The notes beneath the pieces were generated by a model that did no database searches, was not told the origin of the DNA, and saw only the letters and a list, made by a program, of their open reading frames with translations. A stretch of 64,000 bases of DNA from Asterias rubens (Eukaryota): positions 6,697,047-6,761,046 of the forward strand of contig NC_047066.1 in the NCBI RefSeq assembly GCF_902459465.1, given 5' to 3'. Position 1 is the stretch's first letter, and every line of letters begins with the position of its first letter. This document shows, piece by piece, positions 612-41,272 of this stretch. A program made the position numbers and the translations under genes.

Positions 612-975
612 AATATTAAAGGAACACGATGCCCTGGATCGGTCGAGTTGGTCTTTGAAAAGCATTTGTAACCATTTGTTATAAAATACATATGATTAGA
701 AAGATATTTTAAAAGTAGAATCAAATGATCCCCAAAAGTATCACTCGAAATTGCGTTGTTTTCCTTTTACCTCGTCGACAAACACGGTCGGCCATATGGT
801 CGACCGTGTTAGTTCGCAAAGTAAAAGGAAAACCACGCAATTTCGAGGCAAATGTGTGTGGATCATTGTATTCTACTTTTAAAACATCTTTCTAACCATA
901 TACATTTTATAACAAACGGTTATAAACGCTTTTCAAAGACCAACTCGGTCGATCCAGGGCATCGTGTTCCTTTAA
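612..975. repeat. Imperfect ~360-bp palindrome (foldback-like element) centred on ggccatatggtc at about 797
   Basis: Left arm 612-795 is the reverse complement of right arm 800-975, with a 12-bp internal mismatch block. A partial copy of the right arm recurs at 22862-22925. Confidence 0.7.
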
Positions 976-1299: not shown

Positions 1300-1583
1300 G
1301 ATCAGCTGTCGCTTGCGCCCTAGTCATGTCAGAAATGGGAAGTAGGAACCCGGTCAAAATCCTTCGAGGGGGATACGAGGAGTTCTCCGCCCTCTACCCA
1401 TTCCTCCGAACCCAGAAGATCATCTACATGCCGAGGGAGCTGGATGAGCTTGTGCCTTACCCCGTCGAGGTCCTACCGGGACGGTTGTATCTTGGGGATT
1501 GTCGGCAGGCATGCAGGACTTCTGTCAGGAAAGAATTAAAGATCAAGGCAGTGGTGTGCCTGACGACTGAAGCCAATGAACTG
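1300..1583 (+). CDS. STYXL1: STYXL1-like pseudophosphatase, internal coding exon. Encodes the end of the rhodanese domain (ILRGGYEEFSALYPFL) and the start of the DUSP fold (PVEVLPGRLYLGD). Upstream exons not found.
   Basis: AG acceptor at 1298-1299 (cttcag|g). ORF frame continuous with the ATG at 1326. Donor ct|gtaagg at 1584. Rhodanese C-terminal motif plus DUSP N-terminal motif, as in MKP/MK-STYX. Confidence 0.6.
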
Positions 1584-2578: not shown

Positions 2579-2679
2579 AGCCAGTGATCTGAACAGTGAT
2601 CAGCTTCTTCAAATTCAAGTCTCAGATGATGAAGAGGGCGACTTGGATCCACACTTGAACCCAGCATGCCAATTTTTAG
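2579..2679 (+). CDS. STYXL1: STYXL1-like coding exon (…ASDLNSDQLLQIQVSDDEEGDLDPHLNPACQFL…)
   Basis: Acceptor tttcccag|ag and donor ttttag|gtaaac. Phases agree with the flanking exons (2 in, 1 out). Confidence 0.55.
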
Positions 2680-3252
2680 GTAAACAGAGTTTTCAGACGC
2701 TTTCCTTGGTATCAACAAGAACAGTAATTTCTGAATCTGAATTTTATAGTAGGCAATACATCCCAAAGGAAACTTCACACATTGAGCAGGACTAAATCTT
2801 ACCTGGACTTTATTTGGTACAAGTAAATACATGTATATTTACTCTTTAGGAACATTTATTTTATTTTATGTGAATATAATTGGTTTGATTTCATTTTATC
2901 AAATAAGTGCAACGACTTGTTGCAAACACATAAGAATTTAGAGTTGCTGTTAATAATAAATTTGTTTAAAAAAAATAGAGTCTATATTTTTGTTTTACCT
3001 AAAAGTTCTGGTTATGAAGCAAGGGGTCCTTCGAAAAGTGAAATTGATCACTGATCACTGTACTAGCCAAGAACCCAATTGAGAGACGACAAGGAAGTTT
3101 AAATTCTTTTGATATGGGAGGGAAAACCCCATAAAATTATTTCAGGGAAAACCCACGCCATCAGGTAGGGACTGAAGATACCACTACGCCAACCCGTACG
3201 CCTCATGCACTTGACAGTTGATTTAACTAATTCTTCCCTGTCTCTGTTTCAG

Positions 3253-3365
3253 GTAAAGTCATCGGTGCAGACCAAGCTGCTTTGGTATGTAGTGACCACG
3301 GACTTAGCCGCAGTGTCAGCGTGGTGCTGGCTTACCTCATGGTGTTCTACAAATGGTCACTGAAG
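3253..3365 (+). CDS. STYXL1: STYXL1-like exon encoding the DUSP signature region GKVIGADQAALVCSDHGLSRSVSVVLAYLMVFYKWSLK. Ser replaces the catalytic Cys.
   Basis: Acceptor ctgtttcag|gt and donor ctgaag|gtaaat. Motif aligns to VHCxxGxSRS with Cys replaced by Ser, the pseudophosphatase hallmark. Confidence 0.65.
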
Positions 3366-3833
3366 GTAAATGTTTCATATTTTTCCACACATCAAAGTAA
3401 AGCATAAAACTTAAGCATGATTGTTATATTATGTTCAGGCTAGTTCAAATTTTAGATTCGAAGAGTAACAGTTCACAAAACCTGGCAAACCACATCACAT
3501 GTTTACACCAGGGTAGTCGGGTTGGCTAAGTGGTGTCTTTGGTCAACTTCCACCTTAAGGACTCCCGTTTGAATTCTATGAGGGCACCGTGTGTTTTGGG
3601 TTTTCAGTCCCTACCTGATTGCAAGGGATTTCTCTAGATAATTCTCTGGGGTTTTCCTTCCACAACTGAAACTGAAATTTCCTTTCTTATCTTCTCTCCA
3701 TGCGGTACTTGGAAAGTCTAGTGATTAAGCTTGCCTTTTTGAGAATATGCGGCTTCACAACCTAAGTTAATAAATAAATGAATACATAAATATACTAAAA
3801 GTTTACTATACAATTTTGTTCATTTTTCAACAG

Positions 3834-3965
3834 GAGGCTCATAAACATCTGCTGGATTGTAAGAGTAACATCCGTCCACATCGATCATTTGTACATCAGC
3901 TCTCCAAATGGGAGAAGACGGTATTTGGCGAGACGCTAACCGATGTTAGCGATCCCAACTTCTAA
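3834..3965 (+). CDS. STYXL1: STYXL1-like terminal coding exon (…FVHQLSKWEKTVFGETLTDVSDPNF*), stop included
   Basis: Acceptor ttcaacag|gag. The C-terminus matches the remembered human STYXL1 C-terminus (…[22 protein letters not shown]). TAA at 3963-3965. Confidence 0.7.
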   Translation, partial: EAHKHLLDCKSNIRPHRSFVHQLSKWEKTVFGETLTDVSDPNF

Positions 3966-4084: not shown

Positions 4085-4200
4085 TCCCTTGCTTAAGGAC
4101 ACAAGCGCCACGACCTGGACTCAAACCCACACTCTGCTGCAGATCAGAAACACCAAAGCTTGAGTTCGGATGCTCCTAACAGCTTGGCCACAACACATCC
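4085..4200 (-). mobile_element. tRNA-derived SINE, family 1 copy
   Basis: Shares gcttaaggacac…ctgctg(c)agatcagaaacacca(a/g)agcttgagtt with the copies at 2255 and 18195. Confidence 0.6.
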
Positions 4201-5220
4201 CCAACATGTACATGTAATTGTACAAGGCACAATACAATTTCTGTATCAACATCTTCTCTCTTCATTGGCTTTCCGCTGAAAGATGTACAGGCTATGAAAT
4301 AATACAAGAGCCGGTTCCTTTGATGATGTAGCAACACTTTAAGTTGTGGCTGTGTTATGTATAAATAGATTTCTAATTGTCTCATGCATAATAGTTTATT
4401 AAGGCTTCACCTACAAGCTGATTCTGGGTATAAGTGAAACCTTACTGAACCATTATGCAGTTGTTACCTCAGATAGAAAGTATCAATGAAGACTTAAGTG
4501 GGTGTCTTTTCTACAAAATCAAATACATAGTTTATTTCTTGCATTAGCACAATATTTCAGTATTCCATGTCCATACATTGAGTAATCTTTAGCTGATACA
4601 GCTTTAGCTTGGTCAAGAATGTTGGTTAAAGTCATTTGTAAAAATTATTACACTTGTATTTACATTGTTTGTATAAATACCATGAGGGCAACAATGCACC
4701 TGTAATCATTGTAAGATATTATGAACTTAAAATAAACCCATTGTATATATTATTTCAAAACACATTGTGTTCAAATGTGTGTTTTTTAAAACAAATATTT
4801 AACAAAAATGTTTAACAGTTTCCCGGCTGGAGTAAAATGAACAGAAGAGATGACCGATGACTCAGTAGTTTAGTGGAAACTAGTTGTTTAATCAGCTCCC
4901 AAGAAAACTAGTGAGTAAAGTTCACAATAGACAGGTCATTTAGGGCACCCCACCAGCCCTGCTGTCTATCACAAGCCCAGAATAAAAGAGAGTGTGATAC
5001 ACCATCTTGCTCTGCCTGTGCCACAAACAGACACAGAAGACATGACACAGTAAACCAAAATGTCGAAAGTTACTTGCATTTTGAAATGGAACTTTAAGCT
5101 ACTTTTAAAACATCTTGGTGCATGTTCACTGTTGTGATAGGTTGATCTATAAAAGAGCGTGGAGCTCTTTCACTTTAATAACCTACACTTTGAGGAAAAC
5201 ACACATAGAACAATTACCAG

Positions 5221-5506: not shown

Positions 5507-6067
5507 TCAGACTACAACAGACCCATTATAAGTCCCTGCAATTGAAAGGACTTCCCTCCCCACCGTCTCCTCAGACCCACCATCTAAAAACGTCTCGGTC
5601 AGTTCCCTGAGCGTAATGGCAAGTCGTCTGGCGATTATTGCCCCTCGACATATTCCGTGATTCCAGTCGTGTCTTGCGGCACCAGACACAACAACCAGAC
5701 TCCGCGCTGGGAGTGGTATCCTTACAGTCGGGGCGGTTTGGGGGTCATGCCCGGCAGAGGTCGTATCTGAGGTTGTAACTGGGGTCAGATCTGAGGTCGT
5801 AACTGGGGTCATGTCCAGAAAGGTTCCCGACAACAAGTTGATCGTTATTAATCTCTCTCCCCATAACCAGCTGTCGTCCCTGTGGGGATCAATGGAGGAC
5901 CCTCTGTCCGGGCGATATTCAAGATTGCACAGTTCCACAGGGACAAAGTCGTCCAGACCAGGGTGTGAGTTTATGCGATTCACAAAGGGTTGGATGAATG
6001 GAGGCAGCCCTGTAAAACTTCCAGTTTTAAGTTTTCTTCGTTTGAAATTTACTTTTGGTCCGTAGTC
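5507..6067 (-). CDS. ALKBH4: ALKBH4 exon 3 (DYGPKVNFKRRKLKTGSFTGLPPF … IDPHRDDSWLWGERLITINLL … IPLPARSLVVVSGAARHDWNHGI … *), stop included
   Basis: Near-colinear match to remembered human ALKBH4 (DYGPKVNFRKQKLKTEGF…AIDPHLDDAWLWGERLVSLNLL…IPLPARSLLVLTGAARHQWKHAI). Acceptor ccacag|gactac. HxD iron-binding motif present. Confidence 0.85.
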   Translation of the reverse strand, partial: DYGPKVNFKRRKLKTGSFTGLPPFIQPFVNRINSHPGLDDFVPVELCNLEYRPDRGSSIDPHRDDSWLWGERLITINLLSGTFLDMTPVTTSDLTPVTTSDTTSAGHDPQTAPTVRIPLPARSLVVVSGAARHDWNHGICRGAIIARRLAITLRELTETFLDGGSEETVGREVLSIAGTYNGSVVV

Positions 6068-6394
6068 CTGTGGTCCAAAACAGAGATATAAATTTGTTTT
6101 TATAACCTTGGTTTTTATCACAAAGAATGGGAAACAAAATTAATGATATCATTTTGTTTAAATTTTTTTTCAAAGAGTTCAATAACTTCAACAATATTGC
6201 AAATTAAGTATATAAATTTTAAGTAATTGGAGAGGTTTTACACATTTAATTCTAATTGTTAATGACCAGTGATTAAAACTAAATTTTTTAAAAGGTTGTT
6301 CACAGAGTTTAAAATCTTCAACAAAATTTACAATTAAAAGAATAAGAACCTTTACAAAAAGAAATAACTAAAATAATACAAACTTGGCAAGGTT

Positions 6395-6790
6395 TAAAGC
6401 CATTATACACTTTCGGTAAACAGTATTGTCCAAGTCCCACACTTCGTGTAGCACAACTTATATATAAAATAACAAACCTGTGAAAATTTAGGTTCAATCG
6501 GTCATCGGAGTCGGGAGAAAATAACGGGAAAACCCACTCTTGTTTCCGCACGTTTTGCCGTGTCATGACATGTGTTTAAAATAAATCCGTAATTCTCGCT
6601 ATCGAGAGTTGATATTGTTTTAATGTTTTCTCAAAAAGTAAAGCATTTCATGGAACAATATTTCCAGAGAAGTCTTTCACCATTACCTTCTGTAAACCCT
6701 GTACATTATTCGTAAATCTGTGAACTTTTTTTTCTTCTTTCTGTACCGAAAGTGTATACACTGTAATGGCTTTAAACAAACAAGTTTATA
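6395..6790. mobile_element. MITE family B (TIR gtttaaagccattatacactttcggtaaacag … ctgtaccgaaagtgtatacactgtaatggctttaaac); second copy at about 53765-54070
   Basis: Terminal inverted repeats visible. Shares the central module ataacaaacctgtgaaaattt(a/g)g(g/c)(t/c)caa(t/a)cggtca(t/a)(c/g)g.agt(c/t)g(g/c)gaga(a/t)aataa with family A. Confidence 0.75.
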
Positions 6791-7084
6791 AATTGTTAAT
6801 GACTGGTGATTAATTTAAGTTTGTTTATTAAGATTTAACAAAAATTCAACAAAATAAATCATTGGGCAAATTTTAAACAAACAATGCTCAGTTGTTAATG
6901 GTCAGTGATAAAATAAGTTTGTTTAAAAGTTGTTCAAAAATTTTCAACATTGTTGACAATTTAAAAAATAAACAAAAAGAAGTCATTGGCCAAGTTTTAC
7001 ACAAATAGTTCAAAAAATTGTAATTGAGTAGTGATTTGTTTACAGTTAATAAAGAACTAACTAAAATAAAAACCTTTGTCTCAC

Positions 7085-7312
7085 CTGTTTCCATCGCCCA
7101 GACTGAGATGGTTTCCATGGTGACTCATCAATAATCTGGACAATTTCTGCCTCTTCTTCTTCAGACACAAACTCAGGTATGAGAATGACTCCTGGAAATT
7201 CAAGACCATTCCCGGAGTGCTCACAAGTCGACGTTACTAATGACTTGTCATTGAAACTCTCTGTCTGTTGATACGCTTCATTACACATCCAGCAGTAAAT
7301 GTATGGCTTCTC
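7085..7312 (-). CDS. ALKBH4: ALKBH4 exon 2 (EKPYIYCWMCNEAYQQ…FPGVILIPEFVSEEEEAEIVQIIDESPWKPSQSGRWKQ)
   Basis: Matches human …FPFPGVMLIEDFVTREEEAELVRLMDRDPWKLSQSGRRKQ. Acceptor ttttttaaag|gag and donor cag|gtgaga. 228 nt, phase 0. Confidence 0.85.
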
Positions 7313-8225
7313 CTTTAAAAAATAACACAAACACACTTTTCTGAATTATTAACTTGTTCATAATTTTTTTCTAAAAGTCAGGTGTTTTTTTAAGTATTGC
7401 TTGTGGTTCAGCACATCTCCTTTGTAAAAAATTAAAAAAATTCTGACCTCTGGAAATTATATTATATTTCCTCTGGCAAACTCAAGTTTTGGTGTTCAGT
7501 TTGCATTTAGCCTCACTGATATCTATTTCTTGAAAAATTATGCAGAAAACAAACATTTTATATTCATAATTTCTTAAACTCAAACACTTCGGCAGCTGAA
7601 CAGCGAGGAATTATTAGTAAGAATTATTTAACTAGGCCTACGTCTTGAATTGAAGTTTCATGGCCCAGATGTTTTTTCTTGATTGAATTTTGACAGATGA
7701 TACTGTTCCAAAACAAACAAAAACATGATAAAACTTTGGCATATTCAAGACCCAGTATTCAGTAACTAGGGCGCTGTACTCCTTTTGTTTGAAGTTTGTC
7801 ATTATCTATTGCTATTTAATGACAAACTTTGAAAAAAAGGAGTACAGCGCCCTGGGTCTGAGCTACTCCTAGAACTATGCGGTGTGTTCCCAGATGCTTG
7901 TCCATATGTTTTGTACACAAAGCACGGATTGGGTATTTTTTCTTTTCAGGGCGAACGTGTGCAGACAATTCTTCATGTTTGTCCTGGGAAAAAAAGTACT
8001 CGCACGTACCTCGCAACGAATCGGGCAATCGGCATTTGTCAATGAGAGTTCTAAGGACACATAAGGCCTAATTTTGGCGAGATTTAAAAAAGAAGAAGAG
8101 AGATTTGGGTTAGCAAAATTAAAACTAATAGTTCTAGGAGTAGGTCTGAGCATGGAGAGAGAAAAATATATTTCTACGTCACTCCATGGTCTGAGCATAT
8201 GCCACAGACAATCCAGTGCAATAAT

Positions 8226-8854
8226 GGAAGGCACTAAAAACTAACCTCTACAGCGGTTCGGAACTTTTCGTGTGCTCTCGGAACACTCCGGCACGGTTCG
8301 CGCGATCCCCCACGCAGCAGGTTTGGGGAGTTGTTACATAAGAGTGGACTAACCACTAGGACCTGGTTGTTAATGATTTCATGTCTAAAAGATGCAAGTA
8401 CTGCTTCAGACCTCTTTATTCAAGTACGTTTGTAGCAGCAGGTTTGGGGAGTTGTTACATAAGAGTGGACTAACCACTGGGACCTGGTTGTTAATATTTT
8501 CATGTTTAAAAGTTGCAAGCACTGCTTCAGACCTCTTTATTCAAGTACATTTTTAGCAGCAGGTTTGGGGAGTTGTTACATAAGAGTGGACTAACCACTA
8601 GGACCTGGTTGTTAATATTTTCATGTCTAAAAGATGCAAGCACTGCTTCAGACCTCTTTATTCAATTACGTTTGTAGCAGCAGGTTTGGGGAGTTGTTAC
8701 ATAAGAGTGGACTAACCACTAGGACCTGCATGGTTGTTAATATTTTCATTTCTAAAAGATGCAAGCATATGCAAAATGACGTCATAAGGTCATTCTCGCT
8801 CGGGTATTCTCCGATGGGCCGAACCGCTGTGGAGTTTAGTATTTAGTGCCTTCC
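8226..8854. mobile_element. Mutator-like (MULE-type) MITE with ~34-bp TIRs and an internal 4 x ~120-bp tandem array, in ALKBH4 intron 1
   Basis: TIRs ggaaggcactaaaaactaacctctacagcggttcgg (8226-) and its reverse complement ending at 8854. Exact 9-bp target-site duplication tgcaataat at 8217-8225 and 8855-8863. Confidence 0.75.
8295..8765. repeat. Minisatellite, ~120-bp unit x 4 (agcaggtttggggagttgttacataagagtggactaaccactaggacctggttgttaat…), internal to the MULE-like MITE
   Basis: Four near-identical tandem units visible directly. Confidence 0.85.
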
Positions 8855-9490
8855 TGCAATAATTTTACAACATTAAAAAATATAGTATCTAAAAAACTAA
8901 TTTACCTCGAGATATCCCTTTTTGTTAAAATAAGTGAAAAAGTAGTGGCGCCATATAAGCTTGGGCGATACCACGATATTATCGAATATCGCGATACTAA
9001 TTTAGAAACGATATCGATATCGGATCGATTTTGTATTAATCGAAATATCGGTAAATCGCGATATCGACTAAGTATCGCGATGTATTTCCTAGCCGAGACG
9101 TCTCGCGACAATAAATCTCATAGTGGAGATAATCTTACATCATCACTAAAGAGCTGCGAGTCACCGCAAGATTCCTTTGTAGATTGGACCGACCGGGTTT
9201 CTTCGGAGAAAAAACCCAATCAAAGCAGAGATTAGGCGGCCTTACACAGACTACCGAAAACTACATTTAGAATCACTATTGTATCACATTACACTCCCTT
9301 TGAGTGTGCGGCTCAGGGCCGCTGTCTGCGCCCATCTGAGGTGTAAATCGGCTATTAAACTTGGTAGTTTATTTGGTTAGGCTCTATAGAGAAGAGTGAT
9401 GGTCAACTCAGTTTGGAAATAATTAAAAGAGCCGATCTTTTAATTATTTCCAAACTGACTTGGCCATCATTCTACTTCAATCGTTCAAAG

Positions 9491-9898
9491 ATGGAAGGTG
9501 AACTGCGTCTTGTGTCTAAGAAAAAAACAACTTCTGCCGTATGGGTTCATTTTGGTATTGCTGTTGATGAAGACGGAAAAGCAACGACTGAAAATGAAGC
9601 GACCTGCCGCATTTGCTTCAAAAAGGTCTCAATCAAAGGTGGCACTACGTCAAATTTAAGCAGTCATCTCAAGGTAAAACACCCTGCCGAGTCGGCAAGA
9701 CTACAGCCCTCTGCGTCGCCATCACAATCAAATAGAGCCGGTCCATCGAGATCAAATCTAACCACCATCACGGATGCATTTACCCGTCCAAAAAGAAAGT
9801 TTTATTTGAAAAAAGAAATCAACTGCCAATGGTGCGTCATTGAATTACCAAACATTACTAAATTATGTAAGCCTTTACTTTTACGACGGCAGCGCTAA
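9491..9898 (+). CDS. BED-type zinc-finger ORF (…SAVWVHFG…CRICFKKVSIKGGTTSNLSSHLKVKHPAE…). A transposase-derived fragment with no DDE or dimerisation domain.
   Basis: C-x2-C…H-x4-H spacing and the W-x-HF signature of BED fingers. ATG at 9491; the ORF track's TTG at 9413 is rejected. It lies inside the hAT-like element. Confidence 0.6.
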   Translation: MEGELRLVSKKKTTSAVWVHFGIAVDEDGKATTENEATCRICFKKVSIKGGTTSNLSSHLKVKHPAESARLQPSASPSQSNRAGPSRSNLTTITDAFTRPKRKFYLKKEINCQWCVIELPNITKLCKPLLLRRQR

Positions 9899-10890: not shown

Positions 10891-12448
10891 TTTCACACAT
10901 GCGCGTATAGTCCAGTACATGTAGCCCAAATACACACGACTACGCATGACGATGAACGCGCCCAATAGCCCCAAAATTGGGCTTGGATATCGCCCGATTA
11001 TGGGATATCCTCAAAGAGGGCGCTATACAAATTATACAGCGCCCTCCTCCTCCTTTTCTCTTTGTGACGGCGACGCGGCGGTCATAGGTTGGCTCATATT
11101 TTTCAACGGATCGTCTCAAAAAAGTTTGTCGTTTTGCAAGATCTTGAGGTGTTAGCTTCTGAGAAGGCAAGGAAACATTCATCGATTCGTAAGTAACCTT
11201 TTCGTAAATAAATTCTATTAATTCAAACAGTGGATGTTCTCGTTTCATGGGAGTGTCGATCGCGCCACTTTGCTCAATTTTGAGCGACATTTTTTTTTCC
11301 AGGGGCGCGTCGCGACCAGTAACAAATTTTCAAACATGAGATCGCAGTTTTTAGACATTATTTTAATGAATCTTTATTGATTACAATAAATCATATTTTA
11401 CCAGATATTCTGGACGTGCTAAAAATGGAAAAAGTGAGGTGATCTTGTATGAATTTCAGGTTAAATATCCTTTCACTTGCCATGGTCCCAAAATTATTTT
11501 TATATTTTGATGATTTTTTCCATCTCGTTTCCGTCTGTAGAGGGCGCTGTAAAAATACAATTTGCATGTTTGTTTTGGTTTCATTCAAAAGTTTTACTGA
11601 GTCATTTTTGACTGAAAACAAGATTGCAATGGTACCTCACGGGGGTTCCCATGAAATTTGAAACAGGATTACTAACATGAATTTTTAATTTAAAAATTTA
11701 TAATTTGCAAAACTATAGTAGAGTTGGCCTGCACAGGAAATAAAATTACTCAAATAAAAAGTATTATTGGAGTGAATGACCAGAGAGAAGAGACCAAAGC
11801 CAAAGGTTTAGGCAGTTTTTTTTTCTCCAATTATAATATATCACTGTATCAAATGGTACAACATTATCTGTTCAGTTCCATTGTTTTATTAAATTAAATG
11901 TTATGGTCTGAAAATCGTCCAATGTGATTTACTTTCTCACAGACTAAAACACTTAAAAAATGCCACTCTTTTCATGTCCTTGAATGTTATTTCTTTCAAT
12001 TCAATTCAATTCAATTCAATTAACTTTATTTCCAACTCCAAACAAGTAAACAAAACAATTAGGAGTGAATCAAGAATTATGTTTTACAAGCAAATGGAAT
12101 AATGATAATACATGAAGTAATAATACAACATTTACAAGCAAAAGCAAAATATAAATTACGGAAAACAAAACAAAACCAAAACAGCACAAGGTGATGGGGT
12201 TGTAGGGGGCCCATAAAAAGCAATGCTTGTCGAGGATAGACCCCCCCCCCCCTTACGGAAGCAAAACTAATAGGTGGAAAGAGCGAGTAAAATGTAGTGG
12301 CATAAAAAATCAGTTTACAAAAAGAAACAAACACAATACAGTAGGCGCTATTCTAAATAAATTCTAAGCAATAAATTAAGAGCTTAACAATAAAATATCA
12401 ACTTAACCATTTGTTTTTTTGCCCACAACTTTAATCCAGTATAGAAAG
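10891..12448. promoter_or_regulatory. Putative bidirectional promoter / intergenic region between divergent ALKBH4 (-) and LRWD1 (+)
   Basis: The two start codons lie 1.56 kb apart on opposite strands. CpG-dense blocks at about 10950-11110 and 11240-11320 (cgcgcc, ggcgacgcggcggtc, gtcgatcgcgcc, ggcgcgtcgcgacc). Confidence 0.5.
11998..12033. repeat. Microsatellite (caatt)n x ~6, upstream of LRWD1
   Basis: Direct observation. Confidence 0.9.
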
Positions 12449-13432
12449 ATGTCAGAAAACGCTAACATCCCCGCTGAACCAACACCTACAGAGCCCGATC
12501 TGGTGCCCCCTGCTGAAGAAGCTGCACCCATTCTCCAAGTCGAGCCTGCCATTTCAGAAGAAGCTCCTGTCCCTGAAGACGATTCCACTCCACAACTCCT
12601 GGCAGCAGTCGAGCCCGAGCAGACCCTTGACCTCATTCCAGAGGCCCAAGTCGAAAGCGTCCCAGTCCTTCAACCGGAATCAGTGCCGGAAATCCCAGCA
12701 GAGGCGATCCAGAATGCAGCGGAGCTAGCCCAGACTGTGACTTCAGAGAATGTTCTCCAGATCGCCCTTGAGGCGGTCCAAGCCGTCGCGGAAGCTGTAC
12801 CCACAGAGGGCATTCCGGAGCAAGTTGCCCAGCTCGCCCCGCAAGAAGCAGCCGAACCGACGGTCGAGCAAGTGATGTATCCAGTCGCCGATCAGATTAT
12901 TCCCGTTGAGATCATCAATGCTCCACAAGAGCAGCAAGAGGGAGAGCAAGTCGCTGAACCCGTCCTGGAGGCCGTCCTGGAACCCGTCATGGAATCTGCC
13001 CTGGAACCTGCCATGGAACCTGTCCTGGAAACCGCCCTGGAACCCGCCTTGAACGAGGTGGCTCCTGAGCCCCAGGTCGAACAGACCCTAGCTGCCATGC
13101 CAACTCTAGAGCCGCCATCCACTGTGCAACCCTACAATCCTCAACACACCGCCCCGGCCATCTCTCCACCCAAGATCACATCCTACACGGCTGTTCACAC
13201 GACGACCGGCATCATGCGTTACACGCCAGGGATAATGTCTGCCCTCGCTGGCAAGTATTCCAACAGCAGTCAGTTAGTGGAGCAGCTGGTACTCAACTGC
13301 GCTGGGTGTATCTCCCTGTCGGATATCCGCGTTCTGGACATGTCCAATCGAAAGATCATGAACCTTGACCCCGCTGTGTTTTCCCGGATGCCGGAGCTGG
13401 AAGAACTGGACATTTCCTTCAATAAAATAAAG
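12449..13432 (+). CDS. LRWD1: LRWD1 exon 1. ATG, then a long acidic/Pro-rich low-complexity extension, then the first leucine-rich repeats (LVLNCAGCISLSDIRVLDMSNRKIMNLDPAVFSRMPELEELDISFNKIK).
   Basis: Long ORF with LRR consensus at its 3' end. Donor aag|gtactaag at 13433. The ORF track's TTG at 12419 is rejected in favour of the ATG at 12449. Confidence 0.75.
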
Positions 13433-13977
13433 GTACTAAGAATAAATGTTCATTGTAACCCTTGGTGCGACTCTAATAAAACACTTTAAGGCAAGGTATA
13501 CTTTTGGGAATTGTCAAAGACCACTTTCCTCACTTGGTGTATTCAACATATACAATACCTGTGAAAATTTGGGCTCAATTGGTCATCGGAAAAAATCCCC
13601 TTGTTGAATAGAATTATGTGCTTTCAGTTTGTTTTTTTAGATGCCCAAGAAACCTATTTAACTCCATGCACCATTTTGTTTGAAATTCTGAGGCCTCGAA
13701 ATCAAATTCAAATATTTTAGTGAGAAATGACTTCTTTCTCGAAAAGGACGTTCTTCAGAGGGAGCCATTTCTCACAATGTTTTATACTATCAACATCTCT
13801 CCATTGATTGCTACCAATTAAGTTTTTGTGCTAACAATTATTTTGAGTATTTCCAGTGCCTTTAAGCAATGGTTACTAAGCCTCAGTATCCTTCACTGGA
13901 AGGAATTGGGACGGTAAGGTCCTTCGTTTTAACTTATAAGAGCCATTGTTTTTTCATACCAGGGTTTTCCAACGCAG

Positions 13978-15380: not shown

Positions 15381-15823
15381 GTGAGTCAGAGTTTCCTGAC
15401 GATGCCTAGAGCAGGCTCAATGAAAATGACCCCCTCAATTTTCTATCCTCTGCCAAGGTAGTAGTTTATAAGGAGGACAGTTCTTTTCAGAACTGGAATA
15501 AGTTTCCAAATAAATTTGAAAACCTACTCAGTGGAAGTAGAGAAGTCTCTGAATTCCCCCAAAATGTACTCCGCGGTTGTAAAATATACATGTTGAGTAA
15601 GACAAGTTCTCAAAAGGAATATAATCTACCCAGCAAGAAGATAAAAAACATGGTGTTTCCTTGTCATCTTTTACTTGGATCTTTACAAAATCAATCAATT
15701 ACAAAATATCACGAATAAGATTGTAAAAAGTTAGCTCCGAACAAATTGTCCCTCTACAGTTTATTTTAGTTGTTTGTTGCATCGAATTTAAGAAAGTGAG
15801 CTTCTTTTGTGTACATTTTACAG

Positions 15824-16504
15824 CTGTCGGTACTTGCGGAGAAGCACGTAACCACGCAGACTGCCTACTGGCGCAAGACGGTTCCCGAACTCATCTCCAC
15901 CTCAAATCAGAGCCCGTCCGCCAGCAAGATCAGCATCAAACTGCCCATTAAAGCCGAGTCCCCGACGCCCGACGACGCGGAGAAGCCACAGGGAACTTCA
16001 AACTCTCTCGCAGCGAGCTTAGAGGCGGCCGTCAAGGAATCAGACGCAGAGTTGGCTGGCGATGCCGGCGAGGAGACCCCCATGAATGAAAATGATGCTC
16101 CAGACGCACCAGCCGACACCCCTGCAACACCAAAGCAAAATTCCCCCGCCCAGGCCGTGACTAAATCTCCAAGGAAGATAACTGTGGTTGCCGCGGGGAG
16201 TAAAAGTCCCGCAAAGACCCCGACGAAAGCCACAACGTTGAAGAGGGCTGCGGCGTCTGAAACCAATGCTACGAACGGAGACGAACCAAATGCGAAGAAG
16301 GCTAAAGAAGGTGACGAGGAGGAGGCGGTAGTTAAGAAAAAGAGGGGCAGGCCGATCGGTTCGGGAGGCAAGTACACCAAGAAAGACCCAGGCAAGCCCA
16401 AGGCCATCAAGACGGAGCCTAAATCAGAGTCTAGAGTCAGGGCGGCCGCTGCTAAGCTAGCGGCTAGTGTTACAAGTGTTAGTAGTGATGACAAGAAAGA
16501 GAAG
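15824..16504 (+). CDS. LRWD1: LRWD1 exon 5, a large Ser/Ala/Lys/Pro-rich linker containing an AT-hook-like KKKRGRPIGSGGKYTKK segment
   Basis: 227 codons, phase 0 to 0. Acceptor ttttacag|ctg and donor aag|gtaaaa. Corresponds to the low-complexity linker between the LRR and WD40 regions of LRWD1. Confidence 0.7.
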
Positions 16505-16715
16505 GTAAAATACAGAGTTTTGGATGATTTTAAATGTTTCAAGTTTAAAGACTTTTTGACTGATTTGGGGGGTTTTACCCAAACAGTTGGGCTATAGTTT
16601 ACAAACGCTGTGTAGCTCCAGTGTATAACATTTATCTAGCGGGAACGATGTAGCTACACATTTTTTATAAACCTCATTTTTTTTATAAACCTTAACTATT
16701 TTTTTGACCTTACAG

Positions 16716-18194: not shown

Positions 18195-18320
18195 AAAACG
18201 AAGCAATGGTTAAGTGTCTTGCTTAAGGACACAGTGTAACGGCTGGGACTTGAGCCCTCGCTTTGCTGATCAGAAACACCAGAGCTTGAGTTTAGTACTC
18301 TTATCGCACGGCCACGACAC
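18195..18320 (-). mobile_element. tRNA-derived SINE, family 1 copy (LRWD1 intron 8)
   Basis: Same head and body as the 2255-2430 copy. Confidence 0.6.
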
Positions 18321-18748
18321 CCCTGGTTGTGAATTTGAAAGACTATCAGAAAAGCAAAATTAATCACCGTACTAGCCAAGTACCCAAATGCAGAGAAGAC
18401 AAGGAAGGAAGTTTCAGTCTTAGATGTGGGAGGAAAATCTCAGAGGATTATTCCAGGGAAAAAGCCCACGCAGTCAAGTAGGGACTGAAAACCCAATCCA
18501 CATAGTGCCCCATGCAATTCAAAATGAGGTTTTATAGGTTGAAAGTGAGGAAAGAAACCACTCCGCCCACCTGATTACCCTAATGGTTATTAATTTAATC
18601 CTGCAACTTTCCATTACATTTGTTAGTTGACAACGAATTGGAAATCATCCAACTGCATTGGTTGCATTGGATAGTACAACTGCGCACAGAAACACGACAA
18701 GATAACAACATGAAAAATGACTTTTACTTCTTATCGTTTGTTTTCCAG

Positions 18749-21995: not shown

Positions 21996-24639
21996 TCTTT
22001 CATGTTCCCCCGCCCTCCCCCCCCACCCGCTCCCCCAAGTCAAATTAAAAACAACAACAGGAAAAGTCCCAAAATTCCTGTGTATTTTTAAAAACTGTGT
22101 TGTGGATACCTTGTGTTTTTTAAAAGACCTCTTAAAAATTGGTAGAATTTGTAAATTGTTTCTTGGATACTGAAAATGTTGACTTTTTTAAACGATATTT
22201 TTTGTTTTATATTTTAGTTTACCGTCAATTACTCTTGTAAAGTTTTTATTAATTTGTTTGTTTTTATTTTATTTTATTTTTTAAGATACTTACGTAAATC
22301 CTTTTTGTTGTTGTTTCAGACTTTCTGCTGGACTTACATTTCAAATGAATTTTGTAAAGCTTTAACATGCTCCGAACTAAAGTAATAAATTAACTTACAA
22401 AAAAAGAATAATAAATGCGATTTTGAAATTTGGCTGATCAAATATTTAAACAAATTGACACTTGCTTTTTTTTTTACTTTTTTTTTTTTACTTTAAGAAT
22501 GGCATGAATGAAATATAATTTAAACATTCCGGTTTGCAAATAGGAAAATGGCGCTTGATTTGATTACAAAAATATGTGAGAGAATATTGGCTGAAAATGG
22601 TACATTTTCAAAATTTCAGGCTCATATTTAATTGGGTCCTTGGCCCACGGCCCAATTTCATAGTGCTGCTTGAGGACATTAAGTAGCTATGCAAAGCGCA
22701 ATTATGGTTCCCAGAATATGGTTAGCAGCTTAAATACCATGTCACATGTACAATCTGTGACTGGTAGCCTCTTTGTTTATGGTTAGCAGCTTAAATACCA
22801 TGTCACATGTACAATCTGTGACTGGTAGGCTCTTTCCAACCATATGCATTTTATGAAAAACGGTTACAAACGCTTTTTATAGATCAACTCGTCCGATCCA
22901 AGGCAACGTGTTCCTTTGAAATGGGTTATTGTTCTTGGAAAGACAGAGAAGTTTTTTATCTGTCTGTCCATTGTACTTGGATGTCATATTTCCTGTGCTA
23001 CCAATTTGTTTTACTTTTACATCGGTTCAGAGTAGGTTGATTTTGCCACGTGTAAAGATTTGTGATTTGAAAATTTTTTGTGCTTTTTCATGAAATGCAT
23101 ACAGTGGGAAGGCCACTTAAAAACTTGTTTTGTTTCCAAAATATTTTTTTGTTGTTTTTTTTCCTCACTATATTATACCTCAGTGTATTAACGTGTATAT
23201 AGTAAGACATCATGTAATGTGTAGGCGGGTAGTGTAGTGTTGCGTTGAGTCAGTTGTACATAAGGTCAGGGCTTGGTTTGGGTTCGTCAGTGTTCATAAA
23301 CAATTCTGAAATTATCTCAAATCAGCGACTCTTTCTATCACTTGCAAAATTGGTTTTTATAAATGTTCACAAATTTTCTGAAATATCTCGAAGCAGTGAC
23401 TCTTTATATTACAAACCAAAATTATGGAATTGCTAAACTTTTGAGTCTAGTTGTCTTTTGAATTGGGTGAGCAGTAATTTTTTTTTTACAGAATCATGTT
23501 TAAAGCATGGCTGGAGGGATTTTTTGTTGTGTTACCAAAGTCTAAAACTGTTTTTATCCATTGGTCCTTGTTGCCTTGTCAAATATGCAAATACCTTTTT
23601 TGTTAAACTTTGGTGTATGAATCGTTATTTTTCTAGATTTCATGTTATATTGTTTTCAGTAAGTCAGCATCATGCAATTTTCCTCCTACATGTCCATCAT
23701 TTATTCGCTCTATCGTATAAAACCCTTACACCAAAATGTATAATTTATGGTGCACTTAATTGACTACCATGTCAGGTTTAATATAATTAGGTTAATCAAG
23801 ACTGTGAGCATATTATGCAGTTACTTGTAGCATTTGCGAAGTTTTTAAACACGTACATGTTCTGCTCACTTTAGAACAAATTTGTTGGCTGTTTGAATTT
23901 TCTTTGAAAAATACGTTTTCAAAGCAATTAGGGTTAGGTTACCTGTGATTCAACTTTATTAAAGTGGGAAAGAAACTTATATGTACACATTGATAATTAA
24001 AATGAACCTTAATCAAGAATATCACTGAATGTACAAAAATTAAAACCCCAAACCCAAAATATGTAATTGTAATAATTGTAGTTTACCAAGCCAATAAATA
24101 TACAGATGTTTCGTAAAGAACCACATTGAGATGCTGAGGTTTGGTCATTTGTTTACAATGCAATCAACATATGTTTGTTTTTTTGTTTGTTGGGGTGTTT
24201 GGTTGGTTATAAACTGTCACCAGGGGCACATTGTCACCTATTCCTGGGGCTAAAACAGGGTTATTACCTTCAAAGTCCGCAAGAATGTGGACATGGGTAT
24301 CATCATTTAGGAGCCTCACCTTCTATGAAGCAATTATGATTAAAAGCCTTGCTCAAGGGCACAAGTGCCTTGCTCAAGGGCACAAGTGTCTTTGGAGGGA
24401 TTCAAACCCAGTCTGCTGCTGACGAAACCAAATCTTGGGCTCTGTCAAAACTGCTCGACCAGTGGTTGCAACTGATCAGTAATATTGTAAAATGACCCAC
24501 ATTTGGGGTGGCATGGTTGGCTTGTGCATAAAACGCTCGCCTCTCACCAAGGTGCCCCCTGGTTCGATTCCCGGCCAGGGCCATTATGTGAGTTGAGTTG
24601 TGTGTTGGTTCTCTCCTGTGCCTTGAGGGTTTTCAAGAC

Positions 24640-35558: not shown

Positions 35559-36819
35559 CTGTGGATACAAATAAATCAAACCATTGCATTCAAACAGTCT
35601 GGACTTTCAAGCTATGTAAAAAAAAAATACAATTGCTTTAATGTTGTCTATGAGATTTACAAATGAAAAATTCATCTTAACAAACCATTACATATACTAC
35701 AGCTATTGAGGCTTTCTTAACTAAAGCGATATTTACAACAACTGTTGTTAGGTAACATGGAAATATCTGTATTTGAAAGATGTTTTGTTTGGCTGCAGAT
35801 TGCGCCACAGCACCTTGAAAGCTGTTAGCTGTTACATGGTGTTATGTAAATAAATAGGTCTTAGATATTGAACATACCCATGCATACTTTAAAGACACAA
35901 TACTGAGCGCTTTGAGGTGCTCTTGTGTGTGAAAAACCACTATTTAGGCCTATGAACTGTGTATTTCTACTATAATTAGCACTATATTACAGATGGGCTA
36001 ACAAAGATACAATTAACAACACATTATAACATCAATAAAGATTAAATAGATGTTGAATTTGCATCGGGGATAAAAAATATTCATTTGGGTGTTTACCCAT
36101 AAGACCGATGTGTGTTAGCACTGTTTACTCAGTACCTTCCTGAGTCCTGTGAAAAAAATCACAGGCATATTTGCTCGGGTGGGATTCGAACCCACAACCT
36201 TTGCAATTCTAGAGCAGTGTCATACCAACTAGACCACCGAGATTGCCCGGTAGCTAGAGGCAGTTCGAGTCCTATGTTTTAGCAGCGGGTACTGCAAACG
36301 ATTTGATAGATGTTAAACTTGCATCAGGGATAAAGATATTCATTTGGTGAATGAGTATTCTATCCCGATGCAAATTAAACATCTAATAAAAAAGTCATTT
36401 CAAAGTCAAAAATCAATGAAATCGTACGCCAATTGTAAATTTTAGGCCTAAAAATAGTTTACACATTAAAACAAATATACAATTCTGGAGAAGAACAAGC
36501 AAAATGGTTAGGAAAATGGTAAGTTAACAAAAGGGAAATTTCCTCATGGACCTCAGTGAGGGCGCTGTTCGGTATTATGATTAAAGCGCTGTGATGCACT
36601 TTGCGTAAGAATGCTATACAAATAGTGCTATTATCAATATTATGAAAATTATCATGAAATGATAAAAAAACACTTGGTATGTACAATCATTTAAAATACA
36701 ACAGTTTTAACATTATACACAGATTATACAGCGTTCTCCCTTAACACTGGTCCGCTGGCCAAATGCTAGTTTATAACACCTGGGGTCCAGTCAGAATTCA
36801 CTCCAAGTGGTCCAGCTAC

Positions 36820-38989: not shown

Positions 38990-39365
38990 TCTAACACATA
39001 GATTCGAACGGACTCTAACCACTCAGTGCTCTAGTGGTTAAACATCTGCTCTAGCAATGCAAAGGTTGTGGGTTCGAATCCCACCAGAGTGATAGAGTGA
39101 TTTGCCTGTGGGCTTTTTATTTCACAGAACTCTGGTAAGTACCGAGTATACAGTGCTCAATACACATCGGTGTAAGGGTTAAATCAAACTTTATTCTTTA
39201 TCCGAGACATAAATTTAACAACTCTATGTTCCCAGTAAGCTATAATGGGGTTGTTGGTTCAAATCTCACGCGAGTGATTTGCCCGTAGGATGTTATAATT
39301 CACTAAAACTTGGGAGAGTACTCGGGAGAATACAGTGCTCAATACAAATCGGTGTAAGGGTGAAC
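38990..39365 (+). mobile_element. Two tandemly adjacent copies of the family-2 tRNA-SINE (38990-39185 and 39240-39365)
   Basis: Both contain ggttcgaatc(c/t)cac…gtaccgagtatacagtgctcaatacacatcggtgtaagggt. Confidence 0.6.
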
Positions 39366-40386: not shown

Positions 40387-41062
40387 CGGTACGGATTGAG
40401 GAGAAAACATTAAGAAAATAAATAAAAAATCAGTTGCTGCAAAAAGTCCCCAAGGCCTTTTCACTGTCTCCGTAATTGAGTTAGGCCTTCAAGTAAGTCA
40501 AGGTTTATCCATCGACCATGATAAATCAAGCGTAATTTCATTTTATGGCAACGTGAAATTGGTGCAAAAAATACAGAATAAATCAGAGCGACGGAAAGAC
40601 ACATTTTTTCCTGAAGCAAAGCAAATTGGCATTTCAAGAGTGAGAGAGCATCATTACAACAAGGATAATGAACACCCCCCCCCCCTGAAAAAAAAAACAC
40701 CTTAAAAACCGTCACTTCACAAAGAACTACTAAATACAAATTGTTTTGCTTAACACAGAAAAAGAAGGAAAAAAACAGGTTAGCGGTCAACTTCATAAGG
40801 TTTTTACTGTTGCCACTGGTGTACTTCTTTCTCAGCAAAAGAAATTTGCTTTTGAGATGCAGTATTTTCTGCTAAACAGCTTCATGAAAATAACTGGGCA
40901 CTTGTCTTTGGCCTCACCTGTGTGACTGTAGTGCATGAGATAAATAATTCTAATGTTGACATCGTCATCGAGTTTCATTTTCGATCTCAGTTTATTCAAA
41001 TTGCTAATTTGTACTAATTTCTTGCTTCTTATGTTACTTTGGGGACATCTAGATGGCCTCAC

Positions 41063-41272
41063 CTGTGTGACTGGACTCTGGGCCTGAAACAGAATCCTCC
41101 TCCCCAGTAGCTCAGCGAAGATGCAGCCCACCGACCAGACGTCAACCGACGACCCATAATGCTTACTGCCGACCAGGATCTCCGGCGCTCGGTAGTACTG
41201 TGTGATGACCTCTTGGGTCATGTGTTTGTTTGTGTCTGGTTCCTCCAAGCGGGCCAGCCCAAAATCACATAT
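41063..41272 (-). CDS. NLK: NLK exon (ICDFGLARLEEPDTNKHMTQEVITQYYRAPEILVGSKHYGSSVDVWSVGCIFAELLGRRILFQAQSPVTQ), DFG through subdomain IX
   Basis: Matches human ICDFGLARVEELDESRHMTQEVVTQYYRAPEILMGSRHYSNAIDIWSVGCIFAELLGRRILFQAQSPIQQ. 210 nt. Acceptor cactag|ata and donor cag|gtgagg. Confidence 0.9.

Follow-up and report, generated by a model that had tools for sequence, protein, structure and literature searches.

The probable active-site exon of an Asterias rubens STYXL1 (MK-STYX) orthologue carries the pseudophosphatase Cys-to-Ser substitution

Genomic Locus and Gene Model

The window analyzed here—that is, the whole stretch of 64,000 nucleotides from Asterias rubens contig NC_047066.1—contains the 3′ part of a gene for a dual-specificity phosphatase (DUSP)-like protein, together with several other coding and repetitive features (Table 1). 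Four forward-strand exons, when joined, form a stop-free frame of 208 residues, the translation of which is 100% identical over its 208 amino acids to the annotated A. rubens STYXL1 (P0001), with the window encoding residues 91–298 of this 298-amino-acid protein. The exon of principal interest, the third of the four, is bordered on the left by a polypyrimidine tract and CAG and on the right by GTAAAT. Translated from position 3255, it reads KVIGADQAALVCSDHGLSRSVSVVLAYLMVFYKWSLK, with G3253 and T3254 completing a split Gly codon, and it encodes the β-strand, P-loop, and helix start of the DUSP-fold core. The first exon in the window covers the last part of the rhodanese/CH2 domain, followed by the conserved linker YPFLRTQKIIYMPRELD and the beginning of the DUSP domain (amino acids 90–189 of P0001 map to positions 1299–1598 by tblastn), and the terminal exon encodes EAHKHLLDCKSNIRPHRSFVHQLSKWEKTVFGETLTDVSDPNF, which was aligned by phmmer with the C terminus of bovine STYXL1 (9fqr_Xs). 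The Pfam DSPc model matched the 208 window-encoded residues with E=7.4e-23, and the DUSP assignment is therefore not a matter of chance.

Residues 1–89 of P0001, comprising most of the rhodanese domain, found no match in the window when amino acids 1–92 were used as the tblastn query (best E=0.11, at chance level), and the 5′ exons are thus placed upstream of position 1, where a preliminary description of this DNA had also expected them. Two open reading frames containing a GYKRFS-like stretch (581–724 and 852–1277) were considered as rhodanese exons and rejected; they match weakly (E=2.3) a provisional human STYXL1 query used purely as a pointer, the conclusions here being drawn from database sequences and the motif given in PMC2873733, and correspond to the two arms of a foldback/MITE-like palindrome, which weakly mimic a rhodanese exon. 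The preliminary description had further stated that the C-terminal exon nearly matches human MK-STYX. Homology was confirmed, but a near match was not, the compared strings sharing 8 of 18 residues; moreover, its wording implied another string as that of the window, which in fact contains WEKTVFGETLTDVSDPNF (ORF 3816–3965).

Table 1. Features assigned in the 64,000-nucleotide window (positions counted from its first letter)
Feature	Position	Strand	Basis or description
First STYXL1 exon in the window	1300–1582	+	AG acceptor, GTAAGG donor; amino acids ~91–185 of 298
D-loop exon of STYXL1	2579–2679	+	Canonical splice sites
General-acid Asp200 (GAT), within QVSDDEE	2625–2627	+	Codon reading; exon 2579–2679
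P-loop exon of STYXL1	3253–3365	+	AG/GT splice borders; ...ctgtttcag before, gtaaat after
Motif LVCSDHGLSRS	3282–3314	+	Codon reading
Cys230 (TGT), conserved-His slot	3288–3290	+	Codon reading and alignment register
Ser231 (AGT), catalytic-Cys slot	3291–3293	+	Codon reading and alignment register
Arg237 (CGC), phosphate-binding Arg of CX5R, retained	3309–3311	+	Codon reading
Terminal STYXL1 exon, TAA stop at 3963–3965	3834–3965	+	Splice sites, tblastn to P0001
Foldback/MITE-like palindrome	616–975		360 bp, 85.6% identical to its own reverse complement; partial copies at 22831–22920
Repeat copies flanking the P-loop exon	3054–3176, 3603–3725		~75% identical, opposite orientation; longer copy at 18346–18581
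Related SINE-like family	2294–2427, 4088–4204, 18198–18320		
2OG-Fe(II) oxygenase gene	5507–7336	−	Tail-to-tail with STYXL1
Exon of the oxygenase gene	5507–6121	−	PDB 8hbb, E=3e-34
Tandem duplication, 24 bp	5757–5811	−	2.0 copies, 95% match
ORF, putative upstream exon of the oxygenase gene	7061–7336	−	
Tandem repeat, 121-bp units	8314–8767		3.7 copies, 94% match
ORF with BED zinc finger	9413–9898	+	Pfam E=5e-11
Long exon with leucine-rich repeats	12419–13489	+	LRR_8, E=1.5e-5
Lys/Ala/Ser-rich ORF	15809–16597	+	AT-hook-like KKKRGRP
tRNA-like element	36171–36243	−	Rfam tRNA, 45 bits
tRNA-like element	39020–39092	+	Rfam tRNA, 36 bits
Protein-kinase exon	40832–41248	−	Pkinase E=9e-15

An interspersed repeat is present once in each of the two introns flanking the P-loop exon, in opposite orientations, an arrangement that can favor back-splicing. 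Downstream of STYXL1, with the two stop codons about 1.5 kb apart, lies an ALKBH4/NMAD-1-like gene, a large exon of which matches PDB chains named “DNA N6-methyl adenine demethylase”; the short tandem duplication within this exon gives rise to a repeat of the peptide TPVTTSDLTPVTTSD, and the match to the PDB chains falls into two separate parts. A further ORF, for which Pfam gave no hit, resembles an upstream exon of that gene, and is separated by the 121-bp tandem repeat from the BED zinc-finger ORF, which is probably either a hAT-type transposase remnant or a domesticated ZBED gene. The long exon beyond it is acidic and Pro/Glu/Ala-rich, with leucine-rich repeats at its end, and is followed by the Lys/Ala/Ser-rich ORF; a leucine-rich-repeat gene next to ALKBH4 would recall the human ALKBH4-LRWD1 gene pair. 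The kinase exon is of CMGC type with CDK2 as its best PDB match, and its peptide (TQEVITQYYRAPEILVGSKHY...CIFAELLGRRILFQAQSP) presumably resembles Nemo-like kinase. The two tRNA-like elements may be tRNA-derived repeats or pseudogenes; the reverse-strand one, called tRNA-Ser(AGA) by ARAGORN, is 73 nt long and has no long variable arm such as a Ser tRNA should have.

Active-Site Motif

In every alignment made, Ser231 of the starfish protein was found in register with the catalytic Cys of active DUSPs, and Cys230 with the His preceding it. In the phmmer alignments, lvCSdhglsrs lies over lvHSlagisrs of both 1mkp (PYST1/MKP-3) and 2hxp (DUSP9), both of them Cys-to-Ser crystallization mutants. Furthermore, when 146 profile hits were aligned to the STYXL1 HMM with hmmalign, dozens of wild-type LVHCNLGVSRS sequences fell column for column over LVCSDHGLSRS. 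The same register has been adopted in the literature, in which human MK-STYX (IFSTQGISRS) is set against MKP1 (VHCQAGISRS) (PMC2873733). Taken together, the crystal-structure matches, the HC-type profile alignments, and the published comparison assign Cys230 to the His slot and Ser231 to the nucleophile slot. The CX5R signature with its Cys is thus absent from the starfish motif, Ser231 occupying the slot and the sole nearby Cys, Cys230, giving CX6R spacing; likewise, the His before the catalytic slot is absent, being replaced by Cys230. The starfish protein retains Arg237, the Gly of the P-loop, and the general-acid Asp200, the last of which falls on the ISD of DUSP6 when aligned with 1mkp.

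These profile and PDB alignments bear out the preliminary description in placing Ser at the catalytic-Cys position and a Cys one residue earlier; the two outcomes that it had named as contrary to its reading, namely a VCS Cys in catalytic register and exons belonging to another DUSP, were not what was found. Its contrast of “VCS where vertebrates have VHC” is to be corrected, however, as vertebrate STYXL1 reads (I/V)FS, and VHC is the motif of active DUSPs.

Orthology and Structural Model

P0001 contains an N-terminal rhodanese/CH2 domain (PF00581) and a C-terminal DUSP domain (PF00782). Its best PDB sequence matches in phmmer are STYXL1 chains (E=3e-54 and 4e-50), compared with 1.7e-14 for DUSP6. 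The AlphaFold2 model is two-domained (pLDDT 93.9, pTM 0.91), and its top Foldseek match is bovine sperm axoneme STYXL1 (9fqr_Xs; TM 0.94, rmsd 1.5 Å over 300 columns), followed by STYXL1 of radial spoke 3 (RS3) from mouse respiratory cilia (9d2f_H; TM 0.89) and then by DUSP catalytic domains at a TMq of about 0.45. Named orthologues occur in all five echinoderm classes, hemichordates, amphioxus, tunicates, and vertebrates, as well as in molluscs, annelids, nemerteans, one bryozoan, one priapulid, and cnidarians; an exhaustive profile search added STYXL1 of ctenophores, one sponge, rotifers, and flatworms. With the 100% identity to the NCBI-named protein, the PDB matches, and the tree described below, the earlier assignment of the gene to STYXL1 stands, and we put at roughly 0.9 the probability that the exon at 3253–3365 is the active-site exon of the A. 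rubens STYXL1 (MK-STYX) orthologue, a rhodanese-plus-DUSP pseudophosphatase.

The closest HC-type relative of STYXL1 recovered in the profile search is an active-looking VHC family annotated as [quoted passage not shown] This family shares the two-domain layout and aligns over the whole STYXL1 profile, but keeps VHCxxGxSRS, has an N-terminal extension of 100–170 amino acids, and branches as a clade of its own. Echinoderms, cnidarians, and sponges have both families, the VHC family being represented by P0158 of Lytechinus, P0283 of Nematostella, and P0172 of Oscarella, and its presence beside STYXL1 in echinoderms indicates a paralogue rather than the same gene; the STYXL1 name on some NCBI records of the HC family looks like an over-transfer.

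Two rhodanese-DUSP proteins from unicellular holozoans, P0154 of Pigoraptor chileana and P0191 of Chromosphaera perkinsii, are STYXL1-like at both termini. Both contain the catalytic Cys and the Arg, with the His replaced by Phe in the former (FVFCNMGVSRS) and by Cys in the latter (VFVCCAAGVSRS). They may represent a stage before the duplication, or one intermediate between the active rhodanese-DUSPs and the inactive STYXL1 of animals. Both, however, score better with the HC-family HMM than with that of STYXL1, and join STYXL1 to the exclusion of HC-type sequences in only 18 of 100 neighbor-joining bootstraps, so that they constitute a lead rather than a result and were set aside as ancestral-state evidence for dating the loss of the Cys.

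Distribution of the Inactive State

In a MAFFT alignment of 98 STYXL1 orthologues, ranging from cnidarians to mammals, the nucleophile slot is occupied by Ser in 82 sequences, by Asp in 12, and by Gly in three, and never by Cys, with the Asp and Gly residues belonging to some gastropods and amphioxus. The preceding slot contains Phe (54 sequences), Ser (13), Tyr (13), Trp (6), Cys (5), Thr (3), Ala (2), or Val (1), and never His. By contrast with these lost residues, the P-loop Gly and the Ser after the P-loop Gly column are each kept in 94 of the 98 orthologues, the P-loop Arg in 96, and the general-acid Asp in 94 of the 95 with a residue at that column. Ctenophore STYXL1 (the Mnemiopsis/Bolinopsis cluster) reads LVVSSDSLSRS, and in the sponge Sycon the nucleophile slot is filled by Ala. 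The absence of Cys from cnidarians to mammals and from the ctenophores and sponge makes the inactive state far older than the echinoderm/vertebrate split; the preliminary description, in dating it before that split, was correct but understated the case, given Ser in both cnidarians and ctenophores and Ala in the sponge.

The named exception is the flatworm Macrostomum, with Cys at the slot and the Arg lost. Four STYXL1-clade sequences, P0111 (Macrostomum lignano), P0146, P0148, and P0208, combine a nucleophile-slot Cys with loss of the P-loop Arg, as in the flatworm motif LVYCDDGVSCS. Rather than active enzymes, such copies appear to be reversions or to have a site broken in another way.

The STYXL1 gene, its name, and its Ser-for-Cys signature are already known and public in the A. 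rubens annotation, and that signature is the textbook definition of MK-STYX; the finding as such is therefore an ordinary one. What is new, and only mildly so, is the breadth with which the Ser state is documented across animals, compared with the vertebrate-only sampling of the dedicated MK-STYX evolutionary study, which covered 145 vertebrate species and no invertebrates (PMC8907265).

Alternative Readings of the Locus and of Cys230

An active HC-motif paralogue does exist in echinoderms, and is close enough to STYXL1 for some of its records to bear the STYXL1 name and for P0001 to score 253 bits even on the HC-family HMM; it is conceivable on these grounds that the exons belong to another rhodanese-DUSP member, either this paralogue or a classical MKP, and were mistaken for STYXL1. 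The same protein, however, scores 474 bits on the STYXL1 HMM. In a neighbor-joining tree, which is distance-based only, 98 of 100 bootstraps keep HC-type phosphatases out of the animal STYXL1 clade, within which Asterias adjoins Patiria among the echinoderm sequences. The starfish motif, moreover, lacks both the His and the Cys, and the full-length model fits the mammalian STYXL1 structures at TM 0.89–0.94, all of which renders such a misassignment scarcely credible. Nor is it any more probable that the locus is a decaying pseudogene of which the Cys-to-Ser change is one symptom. Nothing beyond the loss of the catalytic residues speaks for decay, whereas the frame is open over four exons with canonical splice sites, the protein is 84–85% identical to that of Patiria miniata, and the alignment across animals contains 18 invariant and 40 nearly invariant columns. 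The Ser state is common to lineages from ctenophores to mammals, and mice in which the orthologue is knocked out are infertile (PMC10761714).

A different question is whether Cys230, flagged in the preliminary description as unusual and worth checking for residual activity, could serve as the nucleophile or as a redox-sensitive thiol of an active or weakly active phosphatase with a C-X6-R signature. The residue is conserved in the three starfish-type sequences, those of Asterias, Patiria, and P0003 (82% identical), and recurs in the sea cucumber Holothuria leucospilota and in P0062, and Arg237, Asp200, and the P-loop Gly around it are intact. These five are, however, the only ones among the 98 orthologues with Cys at this column, which is the most variable of the STYXL1 motif: it is occupied by Ser in sea urchins and Apostichopus, by Ala in brittle stars, by Phe in crinoids, and by Tyr in hemichordates. 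The codons for Phe, Ser, Tyr, and Cys all have the form TNY, and a single change at the third position separates Cys from Trp (TGG); with such codon neighbors in the most variable column, the variation appears to be drift at a single, loosely constrained codon. The position of the residue argues in the same direction. Besides falling in the His slot rather than the Cys slot in every alignment, Cys230 lies in the AlphaFold2 model at the end of a strand (residues 226–231) that runs into the P-loop and terminates in C230-S231, with a helix beginning at residue 236. It is established for HCX5R enzymes that the residue in the His slot lies packed behind the loop in support of the Cys, facing neither pocket nor substrate, and that the CX5R spacing is invariant. 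Lying one residue early, at a strand end, in the slot of a buried His, and with CX6R spacing, Cys230 is not expected to act as a nucleophile, and a catalytic or redox role for it appears very unlikely. Were it nonetheless to have one, starfish Cys230 would be a redox sensor or weak nucleophile working with the Arg237/Asp200 pocket, and asteroid STYXL1 would not be fully “dead.” The suggestion that the residue is unusual and might confer residual activity thus found no support, Cys at this column being confined to a few echinoderm lineages.

Comparison with Known Phosphatases and Pseudophosphatases

With Ser231 taken as the residue in the nucleophile slot of a STYXL1 orthologue, the starfish protein resembles most closely mammalian STYXL1 (MK-STYX, DUSP24). 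Both have the rhodanese/CH2-plus-DUSP architecture, Ser in the catalytic slot, and a residue other than His before it; both keep the Gly, the Arg, and the general-acid Asp; and both share a conserved N terminus, the linker, and a C-terminal WEK...TD..DP tail. The overall identity is about 42–45%, and the differences include the residue preceding the slot (Cys in starfish, Phe in mammals) and the loop itself (SDHG in starfish versus STQG or STLG in mammals). Partners of the mammalian protein are G3BP1, PTPMT1, CCT, and CFAP91/MORN5.

The classical MKPs (MKP-3/DUSP6, MKP-1/DUSP1, DUSP9, and DUSP7) have the same DUSP catalytic fold (Foldseek TMt about 0.9) and a motif that corresponds column for column with that of starfish, including GxSRS and the ISD general-acid loop. 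They differ in having His-Cys where starfish STYXL1 has Cys-Ser and, in phmmer searches of the PDB with the starfish protein, in E-values about 40 orders of magnitude weaker than those of STYXL1. The MKP kinase-interaction motif, furthermore, contains consecutive arginines, whereas P0001 has no RR pair; by eye, its HIITAKKAPRS, encoded upstream of the window, stands against ITALRVKKKN of human MK-STYX. STYX is likewise a DUSP-fold protein inactivated by loss of the catalytic Cys, and its activity is restorable by introducing Cys. Unlike starfish STYXL1, it keeps the His, has Gly at the Cys slot, and is without a rhodanese domain, and it is distant in sequence (PDB 2r0b, E=2.9e-7).

Putative Function of Starfish STYXL1

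Human MK-STYX is inactive, and the double substitution F245H/S246C renders it active (PMC2873733). In the starfish protein, the nucleophilic Cys is replaced by Ser231 and the adjacent His by Cys230, and the DUSP fold and the phosphate cradle are intact. On the basis of PTP chemistry and the human substitutions, a protein without the thiolate nucleophile would be expected to form no phospho-cysteine intermediate, and hence to perform no dephosphorylation; we infer that native starfish STYXL1 lacks phosphatase activity. At the same time, the near-invariance of the Arg, the Asp, and the P-loop Gly suggests that the pocket is still under selection and apparently still binds something, which could be a phospho-ligand or another anion and is not obviously needed by a purely structural role.

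The two closest structural matches both come from axonemes, 9fqr being a cryo-EM structure of the 96-nm axonemal repeat of bovine sperm and 9d2f that of RS3 from mouse respiratory cilia. STYXL1 belongs to the stalk of RS3, and there it and MORN5 jointly clamp a helix of CFAP91 (PMC11779644; bioRxiv 10.1101/2025.05.19.654877). In addition, Styxl1 knockout mice are infertile with defects in flagellar microtubules, and STYXL1 binds the CCT chaperonin, for which a co-factor role has been described (PMC10761714). Starfish STYXL1 may accordingly be pictured as a subunit with a structural or adaptor function and no catalysis, for which the RS3 stalk with CFAP91 and MORN5 is the best structural precedent, although the RS3 and CCT roles are carried over from mammalian proteins at about 45% identity.

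Starfish have flagellated sperm and ciliated epithelia, and it is in these that a scaffold role of this kind would apply; a non-catalytic ciliary or flagellar scaffold is the most likely function of the starfish protein. Overall, loss of the nucleophile together with retention of the Arg, the Asp, and the Gly in almost every animal lineage sampled is consistent with a non-catalytic role that is ancient and under selection, for instance as a radial-spoke-3 scaffold like that of mammalian axonemes. Echinoderm sperm, a classic axoneme material, would be reasonable material for testing such a role of STYXL1.
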